This document shows positions 1 to 57,624 of a DNA stretch of 57,624 bases, one piece after another. Position numbers and translations under genes: made by a program. The stretch is from a virus (lineage: Duplodnaviria; Caudoviricetes), in IMG/VR virus record IMGVR_UViG_3300030397_000335, positions 1-57,624 of that record; one strand, given 5' to 3'. Position 1 is the stretch's first letter; every line of letters begins with the position of its first letter. The notes under the pieces are model-generated. The model had not been told where the DNA came from and made no database searches. It saw only the letters and a program-made list of their open reading frames with translations.

Positions 1-126
1 CTTGGGGGGCTTTGATGAGGATGCGATTTTTGAAGCACTTTGGTTTACCAATCAAACCAGATGTGAAATACCAGGCCCCGAAGAAAATATAAGGGATCTT
101 GCCAAGTCTATTTGTAGACAGTACCC
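1..126. repeat. Terminal direct repeat, left copy (assembly overlap of a circular genome)
   Basis: 1-126 equals 57499-57624 except position 4 (G vs T at 57502); the primase ORF reads through the join in frame. Confidence 0.95.
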
Positions 127-1372
127 ACAAGGAAACGAATCTATGCACACCTTCATAGCTAATGTTATGAAAGGTGGCATCATTGAGGAGATTGAAACAG
201 AGGATACTGAACCAGAAGATGAAGCTGATGAAATCGAATTATTGCTTCAAAAGGGATTTACTGCTACTGAACTTCTAGGAATGGAGCTGCCTGACATCAA
301 GTGGGTAGTCCCTGGAGTACTACCAGAAGGTGCAACTCTACTAGTTGGCAAGCCAAAAACTGGCAAGAGTTTCTTTGCTTTGAATCTTGCAGTGTCTGTC
401 TCATCAGGTGGCTATGCGCTTGGTAACATCAAGGTTAACAAAGGAAGGGTTTTATACTTAGTTCTAGAGGGATCAAAGAAGGGATTAAAGAAGCGCCTTG
501 AGGCATTAATGGCTGGCGCAACAGAAAACAAAGATCTTCACTTCTACCCTGAATGGCCTAAAGTCGATAATGGCGGCTTAGACCAGCTACGGCTTTGGTT
601 GGGTTTCTTCAAGGATACAGAGCTTGTAATAATTGATACGCTCAAGATGATTCGCGGCAGGGACACAAATCGTAATGTTTACGAGCGCGACTATGACAGT
701 GTTAACCCGTATGCTCATTTAGCAGAAGAATTTGACACTTCTATTCTGATTATACACCATACCAACAAGATGCCGGAAGCTGACGACCCTTTCGATATGG
801 CATCGGGGTCTACTGGCTTAATGGGGGCAGTAGATCAGGGCATGGTCTTGAGGAGATCTAATAAGCATGAGGGTGTAGACCTATATGTTAGGGGCCGCGA
901 CATAGAAGATGTCGAGATGGCCATGACTTTCGATCAGCAACTTCTTACATGGATTAACCAAGGGGATTCGGCAGAGTTCGGGATGAACAACACGAAAGCA
1001 GAGATACTTTCCTGTCTACAATCGCTTGATATCAACGAGTCAATAGGCCCCAAGGAAGTGTCTGAAAGAACAGGGATTAAGTACGATCTGGTCAAGCAGA
1101 CTTTGGGACGCATGTTGGGTGATGGGACAGTGACAAAGAGGCAAAGGGGCATGTATATGCTAAACCCTGTCACTTCTGTCACTTCTGTCACTTCGTCTAG
1201 TTTTGCAGACAATAAAAAGGTGACAGCACCTCATAAAGATACAGAGCTGTCACCTTTGCTGTCACTTTCAGAATCGCCAAATAAAGCCCAGAATGGGCAC
1301 ATTTCGCCCCAAAGTGACAAAGGTGACAGAAGTGACAACCTTTTCAATCCTACAGACGAGGCCCCCTTTTGA
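2..1372 (+). CDS. Primase-helicase, C-terminal part (primase C-terminal region, AAA_25/RepA-like helicase, C-terminal winged helix); continues from 56864
   Basis: Walker A GKPKTGKS, Walker B LVIIDT, IIHHTNK and ASGS motifs; in frame with the Prim-Pol ORF at 56864, giving about 668 aa in total. Confidence 0.9.
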   Translation: MGGFDEDAIFEALWFTNQTRCEIPGPEENIRDLAKSICRQYPQGNESMHTFIANVMKGGIIEEIETEDTEPEDEADEIELLLQKGFTATELLGMELPDIKWVVPGVLPEGATLLVGKPKTGKSFFALNLAVSVSSGGYALGNIKVNKGRVLYLVLEGSKKGLKKRLEALMAGATENKDLHFYPEWPKVDNGGLDQLRLWLGFFKDTELVIIDTLKMIRGRDTNRNVYERDYDSVNPYAHLAEEFDTSILIIHHTNKMPEADDPFDMASGSTGLMGAVDQGMVLRRSNKHEGVDLYVRGRDIEDVEMAMTFDQQLLTWINQGDSAEFGMNNTKAEILSCLQSLDINESIGPKEVSERTGIKYDLVKQTLGRMLGDGTVTKRQRGMYMLNPVTSVTSVTSSSFADNKKVTAPHKDTELSPLLSLSESPNKAQNGHISPQSDKGDRSDNLFNPTDEAPF

Positions 1373-1404
1373 AAAGGTGACAATGAAAGTGACAAAAGGT
1401 GACA
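1130..1404. promoter_or_regulatory. Putative replication origin with iterons
   Basis: 13 copies of GTGACA/TGTCAC at 1130, 1168, 1177, 1186, 1220, 1248, 1260, 1314, 1323, 1332, 1377, 1389, 1399, in both orientations with 9-12 bp spacing inside clusters, at the 3' end of the primase-helicase gene. Confidence 0.8.
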
Positions 1405-1841: not shown

Positions 1842-2264
1842 ATGGCACGTGGAATAAACAAAGTAATCTTAGTAGGCAACCTGGGACAAGACCCTGAACT
1901 ACGCTACACAGGGAGCGGAACCGCCGTGTGCAACATGAGGCTTGCCACTAATGAATCCTACAAAGACGCTAGTGGCGAGATGGTGGACAAGACGGAGTGG
2001 CACAGCATCGTGGCCTGGAGCCGACTTGCAGAGATCTGCGGGGAGTACCTGAAGAAAGGCTCTCAAGTCTACTTCGAAGGATCATTGCAAACGCGGTCTT
2101 ATGACGACAAGGACGGAAATACCAAGTGGGTGACTGAGATCAAGGCGCGGGAGATGATGATGCTTTCAGGGCGTGAAGGAGGCGGGATGCATGCCACTAA
2201 GGAGCAACCAGCGAAGGCAGCACCATCGGGTAACTTTACTCCAGACGACGATCTCCCCTTCTAG
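1842..2264 (+). CDS. ssb: Single-stranded DNA-binding protein
   Basis: [29 protein letters not shown] motifs and acidic tip DDDLPF. Confidence 0.97.
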
Positions 2265-4414: not shown

Positions 4415-4773
4415 GCCAGTTAGAATTACTTCCAATCAAAAGCACCATGAAGCTCAGGACGGGCAAAAGCATAACTCTTGCCCGCGCCAAAGAAGAGTAC
4501 AGACAGCTAAACAGAAAGTGGGAGAAGCATAAGAAAGAAAAACCACTGTCATCGCTTGAGCCTAAAGATCAAGCAACAAGACTAATCCTTGATGGAGAAT
4601 TATCAAGAGGAGAAGCCATTGATTTTCTAGTAAAGCGAGGTTGGTCTGAAAATGATGCGCTTTCATGGGCCCTACAGACTTTCACAGGTACCTATTCCAA
4701 CGATTCATCAGCAACAATCATCAAAGCGCGCACCCTTCCTGTGGGGCGCTCAGCACGGAGGAAAGCAGCATGA
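4411..4773 (+). CDS. Hypothetical protein
   Basis: 120 aa; ATGA overlaps. Confidence 0.7.
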   Translation: MSQLELLPIKSTMKLRTGKSITLARAKEEYRQLNRKWEKHKKEKPLSSLEPKDQATRLILDGELSRGEAIDFLVKRGWSENDALSWALQTFTGTYSNDSSATIIKARTLPVGRSARRKAA

Positions 4774-4919
4774 AACTGAATTTTGGAGAAGCAATGACAT
4801 TGATGCTTGTTGGCCTCAATGTAACAGGACTGGCAGACGTGAACTGGTTTCTAGTCTTTCTGCCATATGCATCCTATATCGGACTTTTTGCAATTGGTGT
4901 CTTAGCAAAAGAATCATGA
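4770..4919 (+). CDS. Small membrane protein (49 aa)
   Basis: Start at ATG 4770 (ATGA overlap); hydrophobic, with NWFLVFLP motif. Confidence 0.65.
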   Translation: MKLNFGEAMTLMLVGLNVTGLADVNWFLVFLPYASYIGLFAIGVLAKES

Positions 4920-5173
4920 GAAGACTAACAACCAAACAAGAGCGGGTGCTTAACTACCTGCGGCGATACATAGCCGCCCACGGCAGCTTCCCAACATACA
5001 GGCAGGCAGCGGAAGACCTAACGCTTAAGTCTCCCAACACCTACACGCAATACCTCCAAGCACTAACCCAAAAGGGCTACGTGATGGGTAAAGGCAGAGA
5101 TAGGATATTGATCGCCGATAGGTGTTGCCCCCACTGCAATGCGCGCATGAGTGTGCAGAGGATGGCGGCATGA
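4916..5173 (+). CDS. LexA-type DNA-binding domain protein with C-terminal CPHC knuckle and no peptidase domain
   Basis: LTTKQERVLNYLRRYIAAHGSFPTYRQAA...KSPNT..YLQAL.QKGY matches the LexA N-terminal wHTH; real start ATG 4916. Confidence 0.8.
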   Translation: MRRLTTKQERVLNYLRRYIAAHGSFPTYRQAAEDLTLKSPNTYTQYLQALTQKGYVMGKGRDRILIADRCCPHCNARMSVQRMAA

Positions 5174-6671: not shown

Positions 6672-6959
6672 ATGGATAATAACTTCATATCATTTAATCC
6701 TAGAGGCTTCTTGGAAGCCATTGAGTCAACAGTAGCTAATACTTTTGATCGTAAGATTGCGGACGTTAAAGCGCTAAAGCAAAAGACGTATTCCGACAAG
6801 ACGTGGCTAACTGAAGAAGAGACGGCTGAGTACTTGGGGCTAAAAAAGGGAACCCTACAGGAAAAGCGCCGAGAAGGACTTATTGAGGCCAAAAAGAAAG
6901 AGAAAAATTACTACTACCACATCGACGCCATACACGCATACATAGAATCAGATGATTAA
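6672..6959 (+). CDS. Excisionase-like HTH_17 protein
   Basis: WLTEEETAEYLGLKKGTLQEKRREG; convergent with the integrase. Confidence 0.8.
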   Translation: MDNNFISFNPRGFLEAIESTVANTFDRKIADVKALKQKTYSDKTWLTEEETAEYLGLKKGTLQEKRREGLIEAKKKEKNYYYHIDAIHAYIESDD

Positions 6960-8173
6960 TCCCAGAGCTTTTTTACCTTGTCGTCCAAGTAGTCGGCAAA
7001 GTCAAAGCCTCTTAGGTATGTCTCAGTCTGCTTAATAGACGAATGACCAAGCGCCTTAGAAATATCATAGATCGTCCATCCCTCGGAAATCAGTTTTCCG
7101 GTGATACTGTGACGCGCTATATGTGTGCTAACATTCGTGGTTACATCTGCCAGTTCCATAACCTTTTTAAGTTGATCGTTGATAGCTGCGGTTCTGGACT
7201 CAATAGCACTTCTCTTAGACCATTCATTACTTATGTCATACCCCTCAAGTGCAGGGAATATGAAACGTCCTGTTTTATAAAGATCCATTATCTCACGGGC
7301 CGGGCGCATAATGAGAATGCCGTGGTTCTTTTCAGTCTTGTCCATCTCGAATTTGGCGCGTTCATCATCCCCGTCTTTAATGATGTTTTCTGGCTTAAGC
7401 TGCAACACATCAGATATGCGAATGCCAAACATGTAGTAGGCAAACATAAAGTAGTTTCTAGCATCCCAAATAGCCGAACCTTTAGTGAGATCAAGCGCAA
7501 TAATTCTGTCGATCTCCTCTTGCTTGAGATGCTCTTTGATTACATCTTTTGTCTTCAGCTTTACGTGGAAAAACGGGTTCTTGTCCTGCGAGAATTGCCC
7601 TTCTCGGATAGCAGCATAAAGAATGGTTCTGATCTTAGAGAGATTTTTGCTTCGCGTATTGAGATTATTGCCGTACTTCTCCCTAAGATGCACATCGAAT
7701 CGCCTGAGAAACTCGGGAGTGATATCATCGAAGGAAAGACCAGGCATAAACTTCTCAAGCTTGTTAAGAACAACCGTATTGCTCTTATATGTGCTAACCT
7801 GATTTCCTCGTTTGTAATCTTCTACAAACGACCTTGCATAAGTCATAAAGTCCCCGCCAGATCCCTGAGGCTTGATTCTTTCAACTACCCTGTTTCTGAT
7901 TCTGTCGCTAGTAATATCAAGGTTCTGCTTTGCAAGCTCAGTGAATACCTCATTGGCAACCTGAAGCACAGTTTGCAGATAGTCATTAAACGAACCCGAA
8001 CCTTTCATAGATTGGCGCACTGCCCTTTTCTTGTCGTTCCAGTGCCGAGGGGCTATCTTTTTGTCAAGGGGAACGTATCTACGCACGTTTTTGTGAGATA
8101 TCCTAAGCCTAAGTGGTGCCCTTCCCTCTTGGTCTTTTTGATCCTTTCTTATTTCAATTCTAAAGGTTGGCAT
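6956..8173 (-). CDS. int: Tyrosine integrase (arm-binding, SAM-like and catalytic domains)
   Basis: GIRISD (R), KT (K), HIARHS (HxxR), LGHSS, TETY; N-terminal P..LRI...W arm domain. Confidence 0.95.
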   Translation of the reverse strand: MPTFRIEIRKDQKDQEGRAPLRLRISHKNVRRYVPLDKKIAPRHWNDKKRAVRQSMKGSGSFNDYLQTVLQVANEVFTELAKQNLDITSDRIRNRVVERIKPQGSGGDFMTYARSFVEDYKRGNQVSTYKSNTVVLNKLEKFMPGLSFDDITPEFLRRFDVHLREKYGNNLNTRSKNLSKIRTILYAAIREGQFSQDKNPFFHVKLKTKDVIKEHLKQEEIDRIIALDLTKGSAIWDARNYFMFAYYMFGIRISDVLQLKPENIIKDGDDERAKFEMDKTEKNHGILIMRPAREIMDLYKTGRFIFPALEGYDISNEWSKRSAIESRTAAINDQLKKVMELADVTTNVSTHIARHSITGKLISEGWTIYDISKALGHSSIKQTETYLRGFDFADYLDDKVKKLWD

Positions 8174-8190
8174 ACCGAACGCTCAAATAT

Positions 8191-8410
8191 CGGTGCAGTT
8201 TTCGGTGCGTTACTTTCACGGTTCTTAATTGGTTTCGATTCGTTTCAATATAGCGTGGTAGATTTAGAACTGAAATACGCTGTAAACGTATATATTACAA
8301 GCACTTATTATTCCGCCCCTGACCACGACAGACTACCCGTAAGTGCTTATTTTGCTAGCATTTACGGGTTTTTTCATTTCTCCCCGGTGTGGTTTTCGGT
8401 GCGGTTTTTT
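8191..8410. other. attP region: core ATTCCGCCCCTGACCAC (8310-8326) with flanking arm-type repeats
   Basis: Core resembles the T-arm/acceptor 3' end of tRNA-Phe; CGGTG(C/T)(A/G)GTTTTCGGTGCG at 8191-8209 and 8385-8403; inverted repeat AAGCACTTA/TAAGTGCTT at 8299/8340. Confidence 0.75.
8336..8374 (+). terminator. Rho-independent terminator downstream of the att core
   Basis: ACCCGTAAGTGCT-loop-AGCATTTACGGGT followed by a T run; positioned to terminate the reconstituted tRNA. Confidence 0.75.
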
Positions 8411-8434
8411 ACTGCAACTCTACTAAAACGCACT

Positions 8435-8863
8435 ATGCCGATATATAAACCCTGTGAGGAATGTGGGACTATTTATCCTGCTCGCCCCTACCGCGTACGC
8501 CAAGGAAAAGCCCGATTTTGTAGCCGCGCCTGCCTTGCTAGGTGGATCGCCCGTGAAGTAACACCCAAAAGGGATCAGCGAGGAGATAAAAACCCAAACT
8601 GGAAAGGCGGAATATCCCAGAACCATTACCACTATAAGAAGCTTCAGAAGGAGCGCTACCCAGAGCGGGTAGAAGCAAGACGCAAGGTTCTGAGAGCTGT
8701 TCAGTCTGGCAGGTTAACACGTCTCCCCTGTCAAGATTGTGGGTCTACTGAAAATATCCAGGGGCACCACGAAGACTATTCAAAACCCCTCGAAGTTGTC
8801 TGGCTGTGCGCAAGCTGCCACCGCAGCAGACACGATGGGATGAAGTTCAACAAGGCAGCCTAA
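8435..8863 (+). CDS. Zn-finger/HNH-like endonuclease (142 aa)
   Basis: CEECG...FCSRAC, NPNWKGG, CQDCG...HHEDY.KPLEVVWLC.SCH; real start ATG 8435 inside the tracked 7043-8863 ORF. Confidence 0.85.
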   Translation: MPIYKPCEECGTIYPARPYRVRQGKARFCSRACLARWIAREVTPKRDQRGDKNPNWKGGISQNHYHYKKLQKERYPERVEARRKVLRAVQSGRLTRLPCQDCGSTENIQGHHEDYSKPLEVVWLCASCHRSRHDGMKFNKAA

Positions 8864-51689: not shown

Positions 51690-52670
51690 TTAGGCTCTCG
51701 GTTTAGGCTGAGAGCCTTTCTCGTTAGAGGGACCTTCCAAAGGCTTGGCATTAACCCTCAGACTGATTTGGTAGGGTCTGTCCCCCACTTTCTTCACTAC
51801 GTCTATCCTGACAGCTTCTACCGTGTCGTATCCCTCACTTGTTGCATTAAACACCATGTCTAATACCTCAAAGTCAATGAGTGATACAATAGCATCGACT
51901 AGATGCTTTGGGAGCACCCTGCCCCCACTACTATCTACGTAATTTCTTATTAAACCTTCATCGTCATTTTGGACGCTCTCTATGTGGGTAGTTTCACCTA
52001 CATCGGGTGAGACATTGTATAAAAAGGCTGGTTTAGTGTCATCCTGGTAAGCGACATTAGCAACAGCTTCAACCTGATCCCTACTTGTACCAGTACTAAC
52101 AATCGCCAGCCACCCCCCTAGCTCCTTAGACTGTACATAGTACCACGGTTTCGAACGCCACGCCAACCACATGGGAATACCGTTCGGCTCGTAGTACCTG
52201 GCTTCCAGCCTCGTTGATGGGTTACCAGAAAGCAGTGAACGCTCGTACTCTAAAGAATCCTCATTGGTGAAGACCTCACTGATCTTCTTGCCTATCAGTG
52301 GCACATGCTCTTCAATCTCGAACGTCTTTATATAGGCATCGGTAGCCAGGATAAAGCGCGCCTCCTTATCAAACATCGCAACGCTGTAAGGATTCTCAGC
52401 CAAGAAGGCTTCGTAGTACGGTAACGATTCGCCGTTCTCTAGTGGATATACCTCGCTCTCGTTCTGGATGTGTCCGAGCTGCTGCTTTGCCCTGTACTTG
52501 CCGTAACTAGCTTTTTCTATTAAACCTTCATGCATCATCCTCACCACTAGCTGTCTTACCTGATTCCCACCTATCCCCGTCGCCGCTGAAATCTGCTTAG
52601 GCGACATAGCACCTCCCCTATCAGCTAGTAGCTCTAATATAGCATCTTTGTGTGTTTTGTCTTCCTGCAT
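51690..52670 (-). CDS. Winged-helix + PAS domain regulator in the repressor position
   Basis: N-terminal wHTH (SPKQISAATGI...G.Y); PAS F...P.SVAMFD...IG....EVF...W..W...PW...GG; divergent from the early operon. Confidence 0.85.
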   Translation of the reverse strand: MQEDKTHKDAILELLADRGGAMSPKQISAATGIGGNQVRQLVVRMMHEGLIEKASYGKYRAKQQLGHIQNESEVYPLENGESLPYYEAFLAENPYSVAMFDKEARFILATDAYIKTFEIEEHVPLIGKKISEVFTNEDSLEYERSLLSGNPSTRLEARYYEPNGIPMWLAWRSKPWYYVQSKELGGWLAIVSTGTSRDQVEAVANVAYQDDTKPAFLYNVSPDVGETTHIESVQNDDEGLIRNYVDSSGGRVLPKHLVDAIVSLIDFEVLDMVFNATSEGYDTVEAVRIDVVKKVGDRPYQISLRVNAKPLEGPSNEKGSQPKPRA

Positions 52671-52697
52671 GTAACTGTTACACCATCGTTACAAGAA

Positions 52698-52741
52698 TGC
52701 TACTTGCAACTATTGACAAGTGCTACTAGCATTCGTATTAT
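52698..52741 (+). promoter_or_regulatory. Early promoter with two operator-like palindromes
   Basis: TTGACA (52713)-17-TATTAT (52736); TGCTACTTGCA (52698) and TGCTACTAGCA (52721). Confidence 0.8.
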
Positions 52742-52773
52742 GTGTCCGACACTATCAGTGACAATATAAAGCA

Positions 52774-52956
52774 ATGACACTCAAGGACAAACTAACGGAA
52801 AAGAAAACGGAGAGATTAGATGTTCGTGTCCCTGTCCACTTGATGGATAGAGTTAGGGCAATTGTAAATGCATCAGATGCTAACAAATCCGATGTTGCTC
52901 GAACAGCGCTTGAGTTGTGCCTCCCTAAGATAGAAAAGGAGTTCAACCTCGCATAA
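52774..52956 (+). CDS. Ribbon-helix-helix regulator (Cro-position)
   Basis: RLDVRVP..L..RV......NKSDVARTAL. Confidence 0.8.
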   Translation: MTLKDKLTEKKTERLDVRVPVHLMDRVRAIVNASDANKSDVARTALELCLPKIEKEFNLA

Positions 52957-56262: not shown

Positions 56263-56867
56263 CAAAAAAAGAGGAGATTGATAAGGCCAAAGAATCAGAT
56301 AGACATCTCTTATCCGCAAGGGTATCCCATCTCTACGGGGTGCCAGAAAGTGAAATACAAAAGATGGTTTCAGACACTCTTTCTAAATATTTCCATGTCA
56401 GACGTGAAGTACTGAGTGAAGATGGATCAAGCCGGATTGATGTGATTGCAGTACATAAATCGGACAATAATGGCAATTTTCCTATAGGGATTGAGATTAA
56501 AGCGGTTGGTAAAAAGCGTGGTGTTGAAATAGGCGATTGGATAAACCAAGCATATAAGTATAGTCAACTTCCTTTCAGAGGCTTTGGTAAAGTTGCAGTC
56601 TTTCTCTTTCCACAAATAAGCGGTCTTTATTTAGAAGAAGGATCTGAAGTGTCTAGACACAACTTGACTGGACGCCAAATATGGGAAGGCGGGCATCACA
56701 ATGTAGCTACTATGCTTAGTAGCTTTGACCTTGGTGAATTGCAATTCTACAAGACATGGAAGGGAAAGTGGAGATTGAGGCTGGTTTATGCCGCAAAAAG
56801 AATATGGGAACAGCACAATGACATCTTTCAGCCTAACAATCTTACTAACCTTAAGAAGGCAGCATGA
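56259..56867 (+). CDS. Putative PD-(D/E)XK nuclease
   Basis: REV...RID...GIEIK...QA..Y. Confidence 0.65.
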   Translation: MTKKEEIDKAKESDRHLLSARVSHLYGVPESEIQKMVSDTLSKYFHVRREVLSEDGSSRIDVIAVHKSDNNGNFPIGIEIKAVGKKRGVEIGDWINQAYKYSQLPFRGFGKVAVFLFPQISGLYLEEGSEVSRHNLTGRQIWEGGHHNVATMLSSFDLGELQFYKTWKGKWRLRLVYAAKRIWEQHNDIFQPNNLTNLKKAA

Positions 56868-57624
56868 GCGCAGAGAAGAAAATATCATTTAAGTCGGAAG
56901 CACAGGCCCTCGCTAAAAGAGGCATCCATGTGTTTCCGATTAAGCCGAGAAGCAAAGACCCTCTTGGACAGCTTGTACCACATGGATGCCTTGATGCTAC
57001 AACAAACCCTACAAAAATTGGGGATTGGTGGTTTGCAATCCCTTCAGCTAACATCGGGATTGCTACTGGAGAAAAAAGTGGATTCTTTGTAGTTGATGTC
57101 GATCCCAAGAATGGTGGTGACGAAAGCTTTAAAGACCTTGTTCAAAACATTGGAAGCTTTAGGGGTACACTTACTGCAAGAACTGGATCAGGAGGTTTTC
57201 ACTATCTATACAAAATGCCCGAAAAGGGCGATATAAGGAATAGTGCAGGCAAGATTGCCCCTGGAATCGACATTCGCGGAACAGGTGGCTACATAGTAGC
57301 TCCACCATCCATCCATCCTAACGGGAATGTTTATGAATGGATCAATGACAAGCCGATAGCTGATGCACCTCTGCCCTTACTAGATCTGATAAGCGAGAAA
57401 AGAAAAGCTAAAAAAGATCTAGTCAGACTTAAAGATGGTGATATGCTAGTTCATGGCGTGCAGCATGACACCCTCTTTTACATGGGAAGCACGATGCGCT
57501 TTGGGGGCTTTGATGAGGATGCGATTTTTGAAGCACTTTGGTTTACCAATCAAACCAGATGTGAAATACCAGGCCCCGAAGAAAATATAAGGGATCTTGC
57601 CAAGTCTATTTGTAGACAGTACCC
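56864..57624 (+). CDS. Primase-helicase, N-terminal Prim-Pol domain (absent from the ORF track; wraps to 1372)
   Basis: VFPI, ATT, NIGIATG, VVDVD, RTGSGGFH, GIDIRG.GGYIVAPPSIHP.G..Y.W. Confidence 0.93.
   Translation, partial: MSAEKKISFKSEAQALAKRGIHVFPIKPRSKDPLGQLVPHGCLDATTNPTKIGDWWFAIPSANIGIATGEKSGFFVVDVDPKNGGDESFKDLVQNIGSFRGTLTARTGSGGFHYLYKMPEKGDIRNSAGKIAPGIDIRGTGGYIVAPPSIHPNGNVYEWINDKPIADAPLPLLDLISEKRKAKKDLVRLKDGDMLVHGVQHDTLFYMGSTMRFGGFDEDAIFEALWFTNQTRCEIPGPEENIRDLAKSICRQY
57499..57624. repeat. Terminal direct repeat, right copy
   Basis: Matches 1-126 with one mismatch. Confidence 0.95.

Follow-up and report, generated by a model that had tools for sequence, protein, structure and literature searches.

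A candidate phage replication origin at the 3' end of a primase-helicase gene and a related winged helix in a PAS-domain protein

SaPI Rep is described as binding, through its C-terminal winged helix, 6-12 penta- or hexanucleotide iterons that lie directly downstream of rep, with opposite orientation to either side of the origin (PMC9371898). For P4 alpha and pRN1 ORF904, the accounts in PMC2777425 and PMC4234260 give the order primase, helicase and winged helix in one polypeptide. The DNA analysed here, a virus record of 57,624 bases taken over its whole length (the window), encodes a primase-helicase that resembles these initiators. As described for SaPI Rep and PriRep5 of Staphylococcus aureus, a primase-helicase fusion carries a C-terminal winged helix, and hexanucleotide iterons are located at the 3' end of the gene (PMC9371898; bioRxiv 10.64898/2026.10.17.759575); as in ORF904, the protein has a Prim-Pol domain (PMC2777425). 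The helicase core sets it apart: SaPI Rep is a superfamily 3 (SF3, AAA+) protein in the published description, and P4 alpha and ORF904 likewise have SF3 cores, P4 alpha together with a DnaG-type primase (PMC2777425), whereas the window protein has a RecA-type core of the AAA_25 family. Also in contrast to SaPI Rep as described, 10 of the 13 iterons are located inside the coding sequence of a disordered tail (within the ORF that ends at 1372), and the array lacks a clear AT-rich centre, the top AT content per 40-nt window being 0.62-0.68. A fused primase, a C-terminal winged helix and opposed 3' iterons were all found, but not the SF3 core that also belongs to the functional class; because of this difference in the core, the window protein would work like these initiators without being a homologous member of their group. 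Binding repeats inside the initiator's own coding sequence are known from Lambda O (ori-lambda), and the window shares this arrangement; Lambda O itself is neither helicase nor primase and recruits the host DnaB through P.

We consider it reasonably likely that the region 1130-1404 is an origin read by the winged helix-turn-helix (wHTH) domain of the primase-helicase, and that a second wHTH protein of this phage, which also carries a PAS domain (wHTH-PAS), is a separate switch regulator with its own operators. In the proposed mechanism, 1130-1404 would serve as the replication origin of a temperate phage, where the wHTH of the primase-helicase would read the 13 iterons. The protein would act as a self-loading initiator that binds at the 3' end of its own gene and melts and primes the DNA there, and the iterons would be housed in the coding DNA of the disordered tail.

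The virus record is classed as 'linear' and 69% complete. The first 126 bases of the window recur as its last 126, with one mismatch at base 4, so that the record can be taken as circular and closed, with a length of about 57,498 bp. The window ends split the primase-helicase gene, and joining 56864..57498 to 1..1372 gives, by arithmetic, 668 codons. A rightward early operon runs from 52774 across this junction to about 6959, while the minus strand carries the structural genes. The presence of an integrase gene (6956..8173, minus strand) and of a gene for an excisionase-like HTH_17 protein (6672..6959) indicates that the build of the phage is temperate. Cumulative GC skew tracks gene orientation and is uninformative on the origin. 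The coordinates of the features discussed below are collected in Table 1.

Table 1. Features of the primase-helicase gene, the iteron array and the wHTH-PAS locus (positions in the window)
Feature	Position	Strand	Basis or remark
Prim-Pol N-terminal part of primase-helicase	56864..57624	+	PF09250; last 126 nt duplicate 1-126
AAA_25 core, C-terminal wHTH and tail	1..1372	+	stop codon 1370-1372
Primase-helicase C-terminal wHTH	962..1156	+	aa 321-385 of the 456-aa part; domain HMM
Disordered C-terminal tail, ends ...TDEAPF	1169..1372	+	coded across iterons; 70 residues
GTGACA iteron array, candidate replication origin	1130..1404	none	13 copies; kept in L006
GTGACA sites	1130; 1220; 1314, 1323, 1332; 1377, 1389, 1399	+	
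GTGACA sites	1168, 1177, 1186; 1248, 1260	-	
wHTH-PAS protein (putative regulator), 326 aa	51690..52670	-	Pfam, phmmer, AF2, Foldseek
wHTH of PAS protein	aa 7-61, nt 52488-52652	-	AF2 model, Pfam
PAS domain	aa 82-219, nt 52014-52427	-	phmmer, Foldseek, AF2 model
Divergent promoter (switch) region	52671..52773	none	between the wHTH-PAS gene and the small RHH-like gene
Small 60-aa protein, weakly CopG/RHH-like	52774..52956	+	first gene of the rightward early operon

The Prim-Pol domain scores 154.4 bits in Pfam (PF09250, aa 13-169) and lies in the same ORF as the helicase. This N-terminal part matches PHROG DNA primase families and is 63% identical to residues 1-252 of the homologue P0002 (671 aa), with which both gene pieces are colinear in alignment. 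The helicase core matches AAA_25 (PF13481, 106.5 bits, aa 92-256, about nt 275-769), the DnaB_C match is weak, and no SF3 (D5/P4-type) family was reported in the Pfam scan of the primase-helicase. The 'P4 alpha-type' label given in the initial annotation is therefore apt for the layout but not for the catalytic domains, which are Prim-Pol and AAA_25 rather than a DnaG-type primase and an SF3 helicase. A word-indexed search gave 125 helicase homologues at E<=0.001, the best 120 of which were used. The closest listed homologues, P0002 (66% identity), P0003 (54%) and P0004 (53%), have the whole C-terminal half in common with the window protein, tail included, and P0004 carries a Toprim primase in place of Prim-Pol. 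The origin reading is well supported by comparison, and the module would extend a known design to another helicase superfamily, namely AAA_25 with a Prim-Pol or Toprim primase. Other collections gave more distant relatives: a scan of GTDB genomes yielded three distant helicase loci, and the helicase matches in the INPHARED phage collection were distant only. Among IMG/VR viral contigs, no close relatives were found of the primase part, P0002, P0003, the PAS protein, P0122 or P0123.

In the AF2 model of the last 156 residues, the wHTH is built from three helices and a beta hairpin, with a block-mean pLDDT of about 86-94, and its predicted recognition helix is encoded at about nt 1082-1123. Foldseek searches with this model returned generic wHTH folds only (best E 6e-3), and the winged helix of P4 alpha (1ka8) was not among the matches listed to rank 50. 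The tail behind the wHTH has a pLDDT of 46-62 and is modelled without secondary structure. Its repeat-coded peptides in the window protein are PVTSVTSVTS and SDKGDRSDN, and the tail is also present in P0002 to P0004; a C-terminus ending in PF is found in 7 of the 120 homologues.

Thirteen GTGACA/TGTCAC repeats at the end of the primase gene had been reported in the initial annotation, and the site count agrees. Counting both strands, the window holds 41 GTGACA sites, 13 of them within the 275 bp of 1130-1404; the remaining 28 are scattered over 57 kb, where shuffles of the whole window give 27.1 +/- 5.2. The iterons have the consensus AA(A/G)GTGACA(A/G), and of the 21 copies of the 8-mer RGTGACAR in the window, 13 are in the array. 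Two opposed triplets, 1168/1177/1186 (minus strand) and 1314/1323/1332 (plus strand), each with 9-bp spacing, make up a 26-nt inverted repeat with 92% complementarity; three more copies are found between them. Since the spacing corresponds to three codons, the triplets are translated as (VTS)3 and SDKGDRSDN, and such repeat-dictated residues would be tolerable because the tail is disordered. The first iteron (1130) falls in the part of the gene that encodes the wing of the wHTH, and the last three (1377, 1389 and 1399) sit between the stop codon and the next gene start at 1413.

Two metagenome loci, L006 and L007, supplied DNA of the P0002 type, whose protein is 66% identical to that of the window. 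In L006, which we refer to as the sister phage, 12 of 15 GTGACA sites are located at 7167-7412, the same place in the gene. When the DNA of the window and of L006 is aligned, 40 consecutive columns are invariant over the triple repeat and its flanks, and the coding DNA is otherwise diverged; such invariant islands point to selection on the DNA itself. The recognition helices of the two proteins are alike over columns 39-51 except for K/R at column 43 (YDLV[K/R]QTLGRMLG). P0003 and P0004, by comparison, have the recognition helix YDVAAQTLKRLVE, and in their tails PVNSVNFV and QVDKVDRVD take the place of the PVTSVTSV and SDKGDRSD of the window. Back-translated on both strands, these tails fit, and would imply, a GTTGACA repeat, which is deduced from the protein only. 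Covariation of iteron and recognition helix, which had been proposed as a check in the initial annotation, is accordingly seen on the primase side, where helix and repeat change together in P0003 and P0004, although the repeat there comes from protein only.

A domain HMM seeded with the wHTH of the window protein (helicase-wHTH HMM) detected the domain in 114 of the best 120 of the 125 homologues and in 53 of 80 metagenome loci. Repeats were counted in the 39 of these 53 loci that offered at least 400 bases of sequence from the wHTH onward. Over 710 bp from the wHTH onward, 22 of these 39 loci have a hexamer in seven or more copies, while a same-size upstream control inside the helicase gene reaches this number in 2 of 39 loci; with three near-duplicate pairs of loci each counted once, the figure becomes about 19 of 36. 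The repeat sequence varies by locus, many repeats having a GT-N-AC-like core (examples are GGTACAC, CCTCACA, CGCGTTC, GCGTTAC, AGTTACC, CATAACA and GTTGCA). Among 18 distinct helicase loci with a clear repeat, the top hexamer is common to 3 of 153 pairs; for pairs below 50% domain identity, this is the case in 1 of 149. It thus appears, from these counts, that a wHTH sitting on iterons at the 3' end of its own gene would be a common design in uncultured phages and elements. As each locus combines a small DNA-binding domain and the site that it presumably binds, the collection may provide a data set for the wHTH recognition code.

That the wHTH of the primase-helicase itself reads the GTGACA repeats is supported by inference, because the sister phage keeps both helix and iterons, both change in P0003 and P0004, the layout is family-wide, and SaPI Rep and P4 alpha offer precedents. 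The array could instead be a partition site, a packaging signal, or a set of operators for the genes from 1413 on, which we regard as unlikely. A partition role might be suggested by the best match of the primase wHTH among solved sequences, the centromere-binding protein AspA (17 bits), but this match is not significant (E 0.05), and the integrase and excisionase point to an integrated rather than a plasmid prophage. Packaging is at odds with the position of the terminase genes, about 30 kb from the array. Operators would fit the last iterons, which lie 8-36 nt 5' of the next start codon and include the Shine-Dalgarno-like string AAGGTG; the layout as a whole, however, is that of origins of initiator helicases and recurs beside helicase genes in the 22 of 39 loci mentioned above, which argues for an origin.

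The second wHTH protein of the phage is encoded on the opposite strand from the early operon. Its AF2 model comprises the wHTH, a linker, the PAS domain and a poorly modelled C-terminal third of low confidence, for which all Atlas neighbours are under the level that counts. Pfam gives the PAS domain 13.4 bits in the window protein, under the cutoff. The PAS fold is confirmed by three other lines: phmmer gave 934 matches through aa 85-205 to PAS-bearing sensors, two relatives (P0158 and P0198) pass PAS_4, and the top Foldseek matches are PAS domains (E 2e-6), with IclR-type regulators also found. The wHTH matches DUF7343 (29.8 bits) and HTH_IclR (28.2 bits, cutoff 22). In its layout the protein is similar to IclR-type one-component regulators, but the C-terminal effector family of IclR was absent from the Pfam scan, the sensor being a canonical PAS, and the HTH_IclR score is far under the 53.4 bits that the same protein reaches with the helicase-wHTH HMM. 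Neither an XRE/CI HTH nor an S24 peptidase or equivalent was detected by Pfam.

Among the 150 best matches listed from 1.84 billion representatives, the same architecture is found in the window's own protein (P0121) and five others. The relatives of the PAS family are singletons (with one cluster of two members) on contigs of 2.4-11.9 kb, the INPHARED phage collection held no match, and a word-indexed search with the PAS wHTH alone returned the query itself only. In one member of the family, P0125, the wHTH is replaced by an XRE HTH, which indicates that the DNA-binding domain is exchangeable within the family. VqmA of vibriophage VP882 has its PAS domain first and then a LuxR-type HTH, whereas in the window protein the wHTH precedes the PAS domain and an extra C-terminal region follows. 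VqmA is described as a phage transcription factor with a PAS-type sensor and a DNA-binding domain, and by analogy with that account, the window wHTH-PAS could likewise tie lysis-lysogeny to a small molecule (PMC8284805).

The initial annotation had noticed by eye that the wHTH of this protein looks like that of the primase-helicase, with about 18 identities in 54 positions. A hand alignment reproduces this figure (18 identities in about 54 positions, with one 2-residue gap), and BLASTP of the two domains gives 14/39 identities, 32 bits and an E of 2e-5 for the pair; overall, the PAS wHTH is 35% identical to the window primase domain. A search of the 280 ORFs of the window (>=50 aa) with the helicase-wHTH HMM singled out two proteins, the primase-helicase at 65.4 bits and the PAS protein at 53.4 bits (E 3.9e-16); the latter score falls in the range of true members, and the next ORF reaches 8.4 bits. 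The five wHTH-bearing PAS relatives score 31.9-42.4 bits against the same HMM. In the reciprocal direction, a profile built from these five relatives, with the window protein left out, matches the primase (27.1 bits, E 4e-8) and no other window ORF above 5.3 bits, and it matches 151 of 160 distinct helicase domains at E<=1e-3. With hhalign, the probability is 99.4% and the E is 5.8e-22.

Generic wHTH resemblance or chance could in principle account for such similarity, the more so as several generic Pfam HTH families are weakly matched by both domains and Foldseek aligns the primase model with generic wHTH folds. The scores refute this explanation, to which we attach next to no probability. 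Against the 53.4 bits to the helicase-wHTH profile, the PAS wHTH reaches at most 29.8 bits with any Pfam family, and the matches to the 177,635 PDB sequences do not exceed 18.5 bits (the best PDB match of the primase domain; 14.5 bits for the best solved winged helix of the PAS wHTH); the leave-one-out profile, in turn, recovers the primase and nearly all helicase domains. The reciprocal comparison against generic wHTHs has thus placed the similarity above that to unrelated wHTH families. The wHTH of the PAS protein and that of the helicase would accordingly belong to one specific wHTH family, beyond generic likeness, and their homology is real and worth recording.

Homology of the domains probably does not carry over to a common binding site. 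The initial annotation had suggested that the wHTH-PAS protein recognises the same repeats; in such a model it would bind the GTGACA iterons and, depending on its ligand, compete with or handcuff the initiator helicase. This model, which we judge improbable from the sequence comparisons, has some weaker points on its side. The two domains are of the same subfamily, the pattern of Q44 with R/K43, R48 and M49 is common to both recognition helices, and the PAS wHTH is 40% identical over 57 aa to the primase domain of L006 (rank 15-16 of 160), which itself sits on GTGACA iterons. A single iteron-like site, CAGTGACAAT at 52757-52766, moreover extends into the -35 hexamer of the promoter predicted for the regulator.

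The ranking of the helicase domains speaks against the model. By BLAST, the primase of the same phage is only the 44th closest of 160 helicase domains to the PAS wHTH, and for the PAS relatives it ranks between 32 and 101; with 43 helicase domains closer than the phage's own primase, nothing points to a special pairing of the two domains in this genome. The residues in common are mostly those of the family, 13 of the 18 having a frequency of 0.37-0.98 (for example I 0.77, L 0.77, P 0.72, G 0.64, V 0.56, M 0.75, G 0.88, G 0.97 and Y 0.98). The V(K/R)Q...RM match in the recognition helix, which the initial annotation had singled out, does consist of shared residues, but with frequencies of V 0.56, R/K 0.77, Q 0.19, R 0.37 and M 0.75 it is largely family scaffold. 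Q44 is the sole non-scaffold residue of the recognition helix in common, and L006 has it too. At the variable helix positions 38-41, 45, 47, 50 and 51, the PAS wHTH and the primase differ in 8 of 8. Two pairs of helicase wHTHs with 59-63% identity already differ in their iterons, and below 50% identity, as noted, a top hexamer is hardly ever shared.

The sister phage gives a further indication. Its iterons are kept, no PAS homologue was found in the 13 kb examined of its 53.7-kb contig, and the equivalent slot holds a 231-aa XRE/CI-type HTH protein (HTH_3, 25.4 bits); the replacement of the wHTH by an XRE HTH in P0125 points in the same direction. Recognition of the same repeats by wHTH-PAS is consequently not supported, and the competitor mechanism is unlikely. 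In a wider variant, the wHTH-PAS proteins would be a small family of regulators that took their DNA-binding domain from initiator helicases, with the protein of this phage binding both the iterons and the site at its own promoter, so that the PAS ligand would license or block origin firing. If true, this would add an origin-level checkpoint alongside the transcriptional switch; we hold it to be quite improbable.

The preferred reading, with an origin served by the primase-helicase and a distinct role for wHTH-PAS, is in line with the position of the PAS gene. In this phage with an integrase, the PAS gene and the early operon are transcribed away from each other, a strong rightward promoter (TTGACA-17-TATTAT, near-consensus with 11/12 matches) lies in the gap, and this position is that of a phage repressor. 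The wHTH-PAS protein is therefore best read as a ligand-sensing one-component regulator of the lysis-lysogeny switch. It would stand apart as a one-component regulator in the repressor slot, and its PAS domain would sense a ligand or signal that sets the DNA binding of the protein. It would most likely read its own operators in 52671-52773 and would not act at the iterons. If wHTH-PAS is such a switch regulator, the choice between lysis and lysogeny would depend on a signal sensed through PAS, in place of DNA damage or in addition to it. The first gene of the operon encodes a 60-aa protein that matches CopG_antitoxin in Pfam under the cutoff (E 0.065), and a role for it can be suggested from its position only.

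One iteron-like site is present in the 103-bp switch region, where the background of 28 sites would lead one to expect about 0.05. Its GTGACA at 52758, the only one there, is overlapped by the predicted leftward promoter TTGTCA-16-CATAAT, and the overlap with the -35 hexamer may explain the presence of the site. A convincing operator for the PAS protein was not found in 52671-52773. Three GTTACA sites at 52670-52693 were considered and set aside as a weak candidate, as some hexamer occurs three times in 337 of 5000 shuffles and in 42 of 528 genomic windows. Two further operator candidates are a 14-nt imperfect inverted repeat around the -35 and the palindrome GTGTCCGACAC.

Most of the related AAA_25-wHTH helicase genes in metagenome DNA are followed by their own array of short repeats, with 7-19 copies per array (loci L008, L012, L031, L033, L040, L041, L044, L046, L048, L052, L053, L069, and L078, among others). 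The sequence of these repeats varies from locus to locus, and a GT-N-AC-like core is frequent. Such loci represent a ready collection of domain/site pairs, the binding itself being presumed. At 1396-1415 of the window, the last iteron (AAGGTGACA) contains a Shine-Dalgarno-like AAGGTG, located 11 nt upstream of the start codon (ATG at 1413) of the gene that follows. Binding of the initiator could therefore also affect the translation or transcription of that gene.

In the homologue P0004, a Toprim primase replaces the Prim-Pol and is joined to a C-terminal half (helicase, wHTH, and tail) that is 53% identical to that of the window protein, and on this comparison the primase module is exchanged within one close family. 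The C-terminal tip of SSB recruits replication proteins, and the last residues of the primase-helicase resemble those of the phage SSB encoded two genes downstream (features are listed in the table below). The tail may mimic the SSB tip and recruit host replication proteins, for which T7 gp4 offers a parallel. A terminal PF is found in 7 of the best 120 of 125 homologues, including P0002 to P0004, P0010, P0091, and P0092. Among the window genes scanned, none was recognised as a DNA polymerase.

Features of the window and of the sister phage locus L006
Feature	Position	Strand	Remark
Primase-helicase tail end	1352-1372		last residues ...TDEAPF
Phage SSB gene	1842-2264		last residues ...DDDLPF
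173-aa early protein	4652-5173	+	match to PF01726 (LexA-type DNA-binding winged helix), 51.7 bits
Integrase ORF	6956-8173	-	
606-aa ORF	7043-8863	+	HNH endonuclease match
XRE/CI-type HTH protein, 231 aa	L006 928-1623	-	occupies the position of the window's wHTH-PAS gene

In the comparison with L006, the replication module is conserved between the two phages, whereas the switch module is mosaic. The 173-aa LexA-type protein lacks a peptidase domain and is predicted to be a second wHTH regulator, encoded in the early operon and unrelated to the first. Further downstream, the integrase ORF and the 606-aa ORF overlap nearly completely; because the HNH endonuclease match of the latter is confined to about its last 80 residues, the real start codon probably lies far inside this ORF.

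The record is classified as linear and 69% complete. Since its first and last 126 bases (1-126 and 57499-57624) are identical save one mismatch (base 4, G vs T), the sequence is complete and circular (about 57,498 bp), and its junction falls within the primase-helicase gene.
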